NCBI RefSeq assembly: GCF_003334815.1
Contig: NZ_QOWO01000018.1
Length of the DNA: 64,000 nt
Reading direction: 5' to 3' (one strand)
Origin: Escherichia coli
GTDB lineage: Bacteria > Pseudomonadota > Gammaproteobacteria > Enterobacterales > Enterobacteriaceae
Position numbers and translations under genes: made by a program
The notes under the pieces: model-generated
Databases searched by the model: none
Told to the model about the DNA's origin: nothing
The model's input: the letters and a program-made list of their open reading frames with translations, nothing else
In this document: in pieces, positions 18,526 through 19,925 of the stretch
Numbering within the stretch: position 1 is the stretch's first letter
Layout: the number at the start of each line of letters is the position of its first letter

Positions 18526-19626
18526 ATGCAAAACTGGATAAAAACAGTGGTCGTAGCCGTAAGCCTGGCGCTACCCGGCGTGGTGCTGGCGCAATCGCTG
18601 GAGTCACTGGTTAACGTACAGGGCGTGCGTGAAAACCAACTGGTCGGCTACAGCCTGGTGGTCGGCCTCGACGGTACCGGTGATAAAAACCAGGTCAAAT
18701 TCACCAACCAGACCATCACCAATATGCTGCGCCAGTTTGGCGTGCAGTTGCCGAATAAAATCGACCCGAAGGTGAAAAACGTCGCCGCAGTGGCGGTGAG
18801 CGCCACGTTGCCGCCGATGTACTCGCGCGGGCAGACCATTGATGTCACCGTCTCGTCGATTGGCGATGCGAAAAGTATTCGCGGCGGCACCTTGCTGTTG
18901 ACGCAGTTGCACGGCGCAGATGGTGAAGTGTATGCCCTGGCGCAGGGCAGCGTGGTGGTCGGCGGGATGAACGCCACCGGGGCTAGTGGCTCCAGCGTAA
19001 CGGTTAATACTCCAACCGCCGGGTTAATTCCTAACGGCGCAACGGTGGAGCGCGAGATCCCCAGCGATTTTCAGATGGGCGACACTATCACCCTCAACCT
19101 GAAACGTCCGTCGTTTAAAGACGCTAACAACATTGCGGCGGCGATTAACGCCTCGTTTGGTGGCATTGCCACCGCACAGAGTTCCACCAACGTTACCGTG
19201 CGTGCGCCTACCAGCCCCGGTGCGCGGGTGGCGTTTATGTCGCAACTGGACGATGTGCAGGTGCAGGCAGAGAAAATCCGCGCTCGCGTGGTGTTTAACT
19301 CGCGTACCGGCACGGTGGTGATGGGCGATGGCGTTGCGCTGCACGCGGCGGCGGTGTCGCACGGCAGTTTGACCGTTTCGATTAACGAAACCAGCAACGT
19401 CAGCCAGCCGAATTCCTTTGCGGGCGGGCGCACGGCGGTAACGCCGCAGAGCAATATCGCGGTGAATCATGCCCGTCCGGGCGTGGTGAGTTTGCCGGAG
19501 TCGAGCAGCCTGAAAACGCTGGTCAATGCGTTGAACAGTTTAGGTGCGACGCCGGATGACATTATGTCAATTTTGCAGGCGCTGCATGAAGCGGGCGCGC
19601 TGGATGCCGACCTGGAGGTGATCTGA
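18526..19626 (+). CDS. lfgI: Flagellar P-ring protein FlgI homolog
   Basis: Signal peptide then [23 protein letters not shown], matching the FlgI mature N-terminus; ATG 18526 preferred over 18511. Confidence 0.85.
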
Positions 19627-19925
19627 TGAAAGTTAACGGCAGCGGCGGGATTGACGGCAGCGATGCGTTAATGGGGCCGAAGGTTCAGGCCAATGATATC
19701 AGGCAGGCCGCCGAACAGTTTGAGGCGATTTTTTTACGCAACATGCTGAAAGAGATGCGTAAAACCAACGAGTTGTTTGATTCGAAAGATAACCCATTTA
19801 ACAGCGATTCGGTGCGCATGATGCAGGGATTTTATGACGATGAGTTGTGTAACACCCTGGCGCAGCAGCACGGGATTGGGATTGCGGCGATGATTGTGAA
19901 GCAGTTGTCGCCGAAGCATAGGTGA
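19626..19925 (+). CDS. lfgJ: FlgJ homolog, rod-binding domain only (no muramidase domain)
   Basis: 99 aa; FEAIFLRNMLKEMRK rod-binding motif; gene ends before flgK with no glucosaminidase region. Confidence 0.6.
   Translation: MKVNGSGGIDGSDALMGPKVQANDIRQAAEQFEAIFLRNMLKEMRKTNELFDSKDNPFNSDSVRMMQGFYDDELCNTLAQQHGIGIAAMIVKQLSPKHR

Follow-up and report, generated by a model that had tools for sequence, protein, structure and literature searches.

A rod-binding-only FlgJ homologue in the Flag-2 lateral flagellar locus of Escherichia coli, and where its lytic partner may come from

Our analysis of a 64,000-nucleotide stretch of Escherichia coli DNA (the window) showed that lfgJ is a genuine rod-cap protein gene of the known E. 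coli Flag-2 system, that its 99-aa product carries a Rod-binding domain and no glucosaminidase domain, and that the Flag-2 locus encodes no peptidoglycan hydrolase. Any lytic activity must therefore originate outside the locus. The overall reading that we favour, at a probability of about 60%, is that LfgJ serves as a Flag-2 rod cap without a catalytic domain and that the gap in the wall is made in trans. In the enterobacterial Flag-2 lineage the short LfgJ is native and maintained by selection: it was found in every Flag-2 locus of enterobacteria that we examined, is under purifying selection and is closely followed by lfgK. In substance a hydrolase-less LfgJ was already known, the gene, the locus and the single domain all having been annotated. 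The Flag-2 locus was reportedly described in 2005 and surveyed in 2020, and a cap-only FlgJ with a separate lytic enzyme is textbook knowledge in several phyla.

The lfgJ gene and the domain content of its product

The region around lfgJ and the chromosome of E. coli FORC_081 share 99.9% identity, and in the RefSeq annotation of that chromosome the product is labelled 'rod-binding protein' (WP_000867284.1). The features of the window that bear on lfgJ are as follows.

13183..13982, + strand: lfgB and lfgC, proximal rod proteins, presumed substrates of the cap (annotation)
16041..17642, + strand: lfgF and lfgG, rod proteins, presumed substrates of the cap (ORFs and annotation)
18511..19626, + strand: lfgI, P-ring protein, overlapping lfgJ by one base (ORF and annotation)
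19614..19628, + strand: ribosome-binding site GGAGGTGA, and TGATG, in which the lfgI stop and the lfgJ start overlap (read from the sequence)
19626..19925, + strand: lfgJ, 99-aa single-domain FlgJ homologue, rod cap/scaffold (ORF, Pfam and RefSeq name)
19749..19904, + strand: Rod-binding domain, residues 42-93 of LfgJ (Pfam PF10135, E 5.9e-14)
19938..20159, + strand: two tandem 118-bp units of REP/BIME type filling the lfgJ-lfgK spacer, non-coding (direct repeats)
20229..21605, + strand: lfgK, hook-associated protein 1, next gene downstream of lfgJ (ORF and annotation)

The lfgJ ORF has 99 codons from ATG to TGA, with the stop at 19923-19925. The sequence GGAGGTGA is located at 19614-19621, 5 nt upstream of the ATG; together with the TGATG overlap it forms an arrangement typical of translational coupling, which suggests that lfgJ may be coupled to the P-ring gene lfgI. 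The order lfgI-lfgJ-lfgK matches flgI-flgJ-flgK in the flg operon of K-12, and the lfgI product is 49% identical to K-12 FlgI, as measured in near-identical homologues. By inspection of the sequence, the N-terminus of LfgJ is hydrophilic and without a Sec-type signal.

PF10135 was the sole Pfam domain found in LfgJ, and the match covers the full profile (model positions 1-51 of 51). PF01832, the C-terminal GH73 glucosaminidase domain, was absent from LfgJ upon the Pfam search. The original prediction had described a 99-aa FlgJ with the rod-binding part only and no glucosaminidase domain, and the domain search bears this out. Against TIGR02541, the NCBIfam profile of dual-domain FlgJ, LfgJ matches only positions 21-91 of 294 and scores 67.8 bits, below the curated cut-off of 193 bits. 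The top NCBIfam matches are profiles of 97-140 positions, yet these are named 'peptidoglycan hydrolase'. This misnomer recurs in the databases, where many cap-only proteins of 100-140 aa without a hydrolase domain are labelled 'peptidoglycan hydrolase'.

The primary FlgJ of E. coli and Salmonella is a dual-domain protein with a GH73 beta-N-acetylglucosaminidase, and its N-terminal rod-binding domain is homologous to LfgJ. In BLASTP, residues 22-98 of LfgJ align with residues 30-102 of K-12 FlgJ at 35% identity, and the alignment does not reach the C-terminal half. The E. coli primary protein has 313 aa against 99 aa in LfgJ, which is without the entire C-terminal glucosaminidase domain. A six-frame tblastn search of the 64-kb window with K-12 FlgJ gave a single N-terminal match (19689-19919, E 1.4e-10), and the best six-frame match of the glucosaminidase half in the window was at chance level (E 0.88).

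Comparison of 18 Flag-2 homologues placed the invariant residues in a cluster at LfgJ residues 28-95. An AlphaFold model of low confidence (pLDDT 60.6, pTM 0.36) has a disordered N-terminus and three helices. No PDB chain matched the Rod-binding profile, so there is no solved structure with this domain. The putative cap function of LfgJ is assigned by homology.

Gene content of the locus and the lfgJ-lfgK spacer

The gene content and order of the region, lafZ and motAB included, its position between the lfhA and lafU ends and its place beside dinB are those of the Flag-2 locus. In the FORC_081 annotation the locus runs from a lafK-like sigma-54 activator gene through fliEFGHIJ, two flagellin-modification genes and flgNMA to flgB-flgL. 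After flgL come a hypothetical gene (LafW), a regulator, lafA, fliD, fliS, fliK, fliL, a sigma factor gene, motA and lafU, and downstream of lafU are dinB-yafNOP, pepD, gpt, frsA, crl, phoE and proBA. The fliPQR and flhBA genes of Flag-2 are found just upstream of the window, and the flhA-fliN end lies outside it. The locus was present in 1267 of 5426 complete E. coli genomes, a genome being counted if at least 80% of the query (window positions 18500-21700) was found. Syntenic Flag-2 loci were also identified in Citrobacter, Yersinia, Tatumella and others. Flag-2 of E. coli strain 042 is considered inactive, and a Flag-2 knock-out in Yersinia left motility unimpaired (PMC6993521).

None of the FORC_081 gene names between flhA and lafU denotes a hydrolase. 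The genes of that locus without a standard flagellar name are three hypotheticals, a glycosyltransferase, a cytidylyltransferase and a regulator, and Pfam and NCBIfam searches of the unnamed ORFs in the locus gave no peptidoglycan-enzyme domain. By the same searches the product of a 322-aa ORF is weakly like a FliB methylase and an 838-aa product is a GT2 protein. A hidden hydrolase among the 325-aa, 103-aa, 322-aa, 838-aa or regulator ORFs is unsupported, since no hydrolase domain of Pfam or NCBIfam was found in them. An HMM made from the SLT domain that is fused to LfgJ in the sister group (see below) had no match in the window or in the upstream remainder of the locus, nor within 10 kb on either side of any short lfgJ examined. 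No peptidoglycan hydrolase gene was present in the remainder of the window (pao, ecp, fdeC and others). That the locus is without a peptidoglycan hydrolase had been predicted originally, and annotation, domain searches and the SLT HMM all agree with it. Two other genes, yafL (a C40 peptidase) and dpaA, adjoin the locus from outside; both are core genes that are annotated also in strains without Flag-2.

A short lfgJ might also arise from a frameshifted or split muramidase gene. This was ruled out by tblastn with K-12 FlgJ and with the GH73 domain of Plesiomonas, and also by the short lfgJ-lfgK spacers of other genera. The muramidase domain sought in another frame was not found in any of the six, and the single-domain protein is thus native, as had been proposed, and no product of a frameshift. 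The lfgJ-lfgK spacer of the window has 303 bp (19926-20228), which is too short for a domain of about 150 aa, so it does not hide a hydrolase domain. In a further 18 loci whose LfgJ is short, lfgK starts from -14 to 121 bp past the lfgJ stop, or 210 bp past it in Pseudocitrobacter, and tblastn showed no GH73 similarity within 3 kb of lfgJ in any of the 18.

The spacer was also considered as a remnant of a hydrolase domain, and this was rejected because it consists of REP/BIME-type units instead. Its direct repeats (19938-20029 and 20056-20147) share 90% identity, and the REP core GCCTGATGCGACGCT has 6 occurrences in the window against 0.35 expected. Other E. coli strains have one further 118-bp unit (match of 3319 versus 3201 bp). 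No promoter- or terminator-like sites were found in the spacer.

Conservation of the short form and the three architectures of the lateral clade

A search for close homologues of LfgJ gave 104 proteins, all of them short; more than 100 have 90-125 aa. PF10135 is the sole precomputed Pfam domain in most of the 104, and the remainder, mostly fragments, have none recorded; one entry, of 134 aa, carries PF12224 besides PF10135. The best 120 matches of a second profile search were each 103-140 aa long, with PF10135 only in all 120. The short homologues come from Citrobacter (including C. koseri), Enterobacter, Kluyvera, Hafnia, Cedecea, Lelliottia, Buttiauxella, Tatumella and others.

We then compared the lfgJ of each locus with the window copy by the Nei-Gojobori method. 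The dN/dS was finite in 11 of 17 loci, while dS was saturated in six, including Izhakiella and Pantoea. Across the 11 loci the ratio was 0.04-0.32: 0.04-0.07 for Citrobacter, 0.12 for Pseudocitrobacter, 0.10-0.20 for Enterobacter sp. ENT03 and Pseudescherichia, and 0.21-0.32 for Yersinia and Enterobacter cloacae. This indicates that lfgJ is under purifying selection and is a real gene, far beyond a chance ORF.

One genome per species was scanned, which gave 80 loci, and FlgI, FlgG, FlgH and FlgK of these were compared with those of Flag-2 and K-12. Neighbour joining on the concatenation of these four proteins (1227 columns, 100 bootstraps, sparse sampling) separated a lateral clade from the primary and polar systems with 100% support. 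Within this clade, support of 100% was obtained both for the Enterobacterales Flag-2 loci as a group and for their sister relation to the loci of Pseudomonas chengduensis/yangonensis, Saccharophagus and a Cellvibrionaceae MAG, and a second group contains a Plesiomonas locus and a Photobacterium locus (100%). In the enterobacterial group and the SLT-fused group alike, a LafW homologue comes after LfgL, and this shared position supports the sister relation of the two groups.

Three FlgJ architectures were found in this clade. All the Enterobacterales Flag-2 loci examined, and Photobacterium, have the Rod-binding domain only. The Pseudomonas/Cellvibrionales group has proteins of 358-379 aa with Rod-binding and SLT domains; the fused domain (PF01464, E 7e-24) contains the ES...GLMQ...AYNAG motifs, and its best NCBIfam matches are the Borrelia flagellar transglycosylase BB0259 and E. 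coli Slt70 (PRK11619, E 3e-26). The rod-binding domain of these SLT-fused proteins (Pseudomonas, Saccharophagus, Cellvibrionaceae MAG) is 45-48% identical to that of Flag-2 LfgJ. The lateral cluster of Plesiomonas shigelloides encodes a 328-aa protein with Rod-binding and Glucosaminidase domains. This cluster has the Flag-2 gene order (PMC4481668) and belongs to the same lateral clade, but its FlgJL, unlike LfgJ, carries the Glucosaminidase domain, and the cluster is without LafW and LafZ.

The short form had been thought typical of non-enteric flagella and a hint at the origin of the cluster. Our analysis speaks against both points: the short form is the rule in Enterobacterales Flag-2 loci of several families, and the nearest relatives outside the enterobacteria carry a fused lytic domain, namely SLT or, in Plesiomonas, a glucosaminidase. 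Judged by the tree and the domain content, the cap-only form is a lineage-specific state within the gammaproteobacterial lateral-flagella clade, and the short LfgJ is no mark of descent from systems of alpha or epsilon type.

A probable lytic activity in trans

Single-domain FlgJ proteins are well documented in alpha-, delta- and epsilon-proteobacteria and in spirochaetes (PMC8517470). Rhodobacter (Cereibacter) sphaeroides Fla1 resembles Flag-2 in having a FlgJ without a catalytic domain; that FlgJ has a rod-scaffold function, and the separate lytic enzyme, SltF, is exported by Sec, binds FlgJ and has its gene within the flgG operon (PMC7277832). Flag-2 differs in that no SLT gene is found in the locus or within 10 kb of the short lfgJ genes examined. 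In Borrelia burgdorferi, whose flagellum is of the periplasmic, spirochaete kind, a FlgJ that is single-domain like that of Flag-2 acts as a cap only, and the SLT-domain protein BB0259 (an LTase) works in trans and interacts with it (PMC8517470). No BB0259-like gene for E. coli Flag-2 was identified in our searches of the locus and the window.

We infer that lfgJ would be translated in coupling with lfgI and that LfgJ would leave the cell through the Flag-2 type III gate, as is presumed from other FlgJ proteins. On the growing rod it may promote the polymerisation of LfgB, LfgC, LfgF and LfgG. The peptidoglycan gap for the rod would be made in trans by a candidate housekeeping periplasmic lytic transglycosylase, of which a Slt70-type family-1 enzyme is the first candidate. 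LfgJ or the rod might recruit such an enzyme, which might alternatively have opened the gap beforehand.

Housekeeping lytic transglycosylases are, as our best guess, the enzymes that open the wall. The model of a family-1 housekeeping enzyme seems the most economical, because SltF and BB0259 are precedents and a Slt70-like domain is fused in the sister clade. Read as a 'Rosetta stone', that fusion would mean that LfgJ physically recruits the soluble housekeeping enzyme Slt70, or else a closely related family-1 paralogue, to the tip of the rod; this is possible, and we regard it as doubtful. The fused SLT domain could also be a later gain of the sister clade, and uninformative on the partner in Enterobacterales.

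Tatumella ptyseos bears on the source of the enzyme. Its syntenic Flag-2 locus encodes a 124-aa rod-binding-only LfgJ, and no hydrolase was found within 10 kb on either side of its lfgJ. Like Budvicia aquatica and Pragia fontium, this species reportedly has no flag-1 and is nevertheless described as motile (PMC6993521), the absence of flag-1 being taken from a statement in the literature and motility from Bergey's data. If so, a cap-only Flag-2 works without a primary FlgJ.

This weighs on the proposal that the glucosaminidase of the primary (Flag-1) FlgJ is borrowed, exported via either gate and acting at or near the lateral rod tip. The original prediction had named that protein among possible lenders; its view of a source outside the locus stands, since the locus has no hydrolase, while the Tatumella report speaks against primary FlgJ as the general donor. 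Supply would be no obstacle, for primary flgJ is found in 5425 of the 5426 complete E. coli genomes and hence in virtually all of the 1267 with Flag-2, and the rod-binding domains of the two proteins are homologous, as the 35% identity indicates. However, the rod proteins of Flag-1 and Flag-2 are only about 48-50% identical, primary FlgJ would need to compete with LfgJ for one cap position, and the two systems have different regulators, the sigma-54 activator LafK (936-1922) for Flag-2 and FlhDC for Flag-1. We consider such borrowing unlikely.

An enzyme may also be unneeded, if the thin lateral rod uses gaps left by ordinary wall turnover and LfgJ is purely a cap. Salmonella FlgJ without its C-terminal half reportedly allows weak motility (Hirano et al. 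2001), which would fit. This explanation overlaps the one we prefer and differs from it solely in whether an enzyme is recruited. It is improbable in our judgement, as two kinds of fused lytic domain have been kept or acquired in related lateral systems, a sign that selection favours lytic activity at the rod tip. Moreover, a specific lytic enzyme proved necessary in each single-domain-FlgJ organism studied (SltF, PMC7277832; BB0259, PMC8517470).

Two further explanations concern the locus itself. A hydrolase might have gone unrecognised in the 325-aa LafW-like protein (22566-23543) or in the 103-aa ORF (27871-28182), both of them without a match in Pfam or NCBIfam, and LafW is specific to loci of the Flag-2 type (PMC6993521). 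But LafW homologues hold the same position in the Pseudomonas/Cellvibrionales loci, where LfgJ already has SLT. Since LafW accompanies SLT-fused LfgJ, it does not compensate for the missing domain, and we reject it as a functional substitute. LafW is also without a signal peptide, is Q/S/A-rich like secreted axial or hook-associated proteins, and has been called a putative hook-associated protein (PMC6993521), so that an unrecognised hydrolase in the locus is very improbable.

Least credible is that lfgJ is a decaying pseudogene, left over from a gene that formerly had two domains, in a locus that does not function. Flag-2 has been deleted or inactivated in many E. coli (PMC6993521), and fliI has an internal stop in FORC_081, the closest annotated genome. 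In the window, however, fliI is intact (5624-6961), and so is the lfgJ ORF, with its coupled start and strong ribosome-binding site. No remnant of a second domain was found by tblastn in the window or the 18 other loci, and both the conservation of LfgJ length across genera and families and the dN/dS of 0.04-0.32 contradict a pseudogene.

FlgJ and peptidoglycan are unmentioned in the open-access comparative surveys of Flag-2, and FlgJ is unmentioned in the Shewanella paper on polar/lateral cross-talk. The pattern of three architectures and the SLT-fused sister group are modest additions to existing knowledge. Related lateral systems would thus penetrate the wall in three ways, with no fused enzyme, with a fused transglycosylase or with a fused glucosaminidase. 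The organisms reported to have Flag-2 only (Tatumella, Budvicia and Pragia) would offer clean genetic systems for finding the enzyme of the enterobacterial Flag-2. If LfgJ does recruit Slt70 or a close paralogue, a core enzyme of wall turnover would moonlight as the flagellar autolysin of Flag-2.

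FlgJ homologues of lateral-type loci and the naming of short FlgJ proteins

In the lateral-type loci of Pseudomonas chengduensis/yangonensis, Saccharophagus and one Cellvibrionaceae MAG, the FlgJ homologue is 358–379 aa long and joins the rod-binding domain to a Slt70/BB0259-like SLT lytic transglycosylase domain in one protein. The usual dual-domain FlgJ carries a GH73 glucosaminidase domain, whereas these homologues have the SLT domain in its place. They were located as follows (L, flagellar loci from the scan with one genome per species), and also in L048, L039–L041 and L053.

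L038:9917-11041, SLT-fused FlgJ homologue
L027:9899-11035, SLT-fused FlgJ homologue
L036:9932-11005, SLT-fused FlgJ homologue

NCBI and UniRef give the name "peptidoglycan hydrolase (FlgJ)" to many rod-binding-only proteins of 100–140 aa, which contain no hydrolase domain. The NCBIfam profiles NF009349–NF009352 cover only 97–140 positions, yet they are titled "peptidoglycan hydrolase". For rod-binding-only FlgJ proteins this name is an annotation misnomer.

Repeat elements and the fdeC allele

The REP/BIME-type core GCCTGATGCGACGCT occurs in 6 copies in the window versus 0.35 expected, and several of the spacers between genes in the E. coli Flag-2 locus are occupied by elements of this type.

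19938-20159, REP/BIME-type elements
749-763, REP/BIME-type element
17651-17786, REP/BIME-type elements
23572-23586, REP/BIME-type element

The spacer between lfgJ and lfgK contains two 118-bp units in the window and apparently three in other E. coli strains, as judged from match length (3319 vs 3201 bp); it is shorter than 125 bp in other genera. In the annotated genome FORC_081, rayT, a REP-associated transposase gene, directly adjoins the flhA end of the locus.

60699-62663, fdeC, inverse autotransporter adhesin, ORF of 654 codons

In strain JP538, which is otherwise 100% identical, fdeC is 4257 bp long. The match between the window and that gene is split in two, with the window shorter by about 2.3 kb, which suggests a truncated allele or an internal deletion of repeat domains.

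Gene content of the Flag-2 locus

5624-6961, fliI (lfiI), Flag-2 export ATPase, intact ORF of 445 codons
7401-11505, fliJ–flgN intervening variable region, three genes
22566-23543, LafW-like protein, 325 aa

The annotation of FORC_081 (99.9% identical) lists fliI as a pseudogene containing an internal stop; the gene is intact in the window, where the remaining Flag-2 ORFs also appear full-length. The LafW-like protein matched neither Pfam nor NCBIfam. LafW is kept immediately 3′ of flgL in enterobacterial Flag-2 loci, and the lateral loci of Pseudomonas/Cellvibrionales have a homologue (23–26% identity) in that position; the lateral loci of Plesiomonas and Photobacterium lack it. The variable region encodes a glycerol-3-phosphate cytidylyltransferase-like protein, a GT2 glycosyltransferase of 838 aa and a 322-aa ORF weakly resembling FliB, the flagellin lysine methylase. 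The presence of these genes between fliJ and flgN suggests modification of the lateral flagellin of Flag-2.
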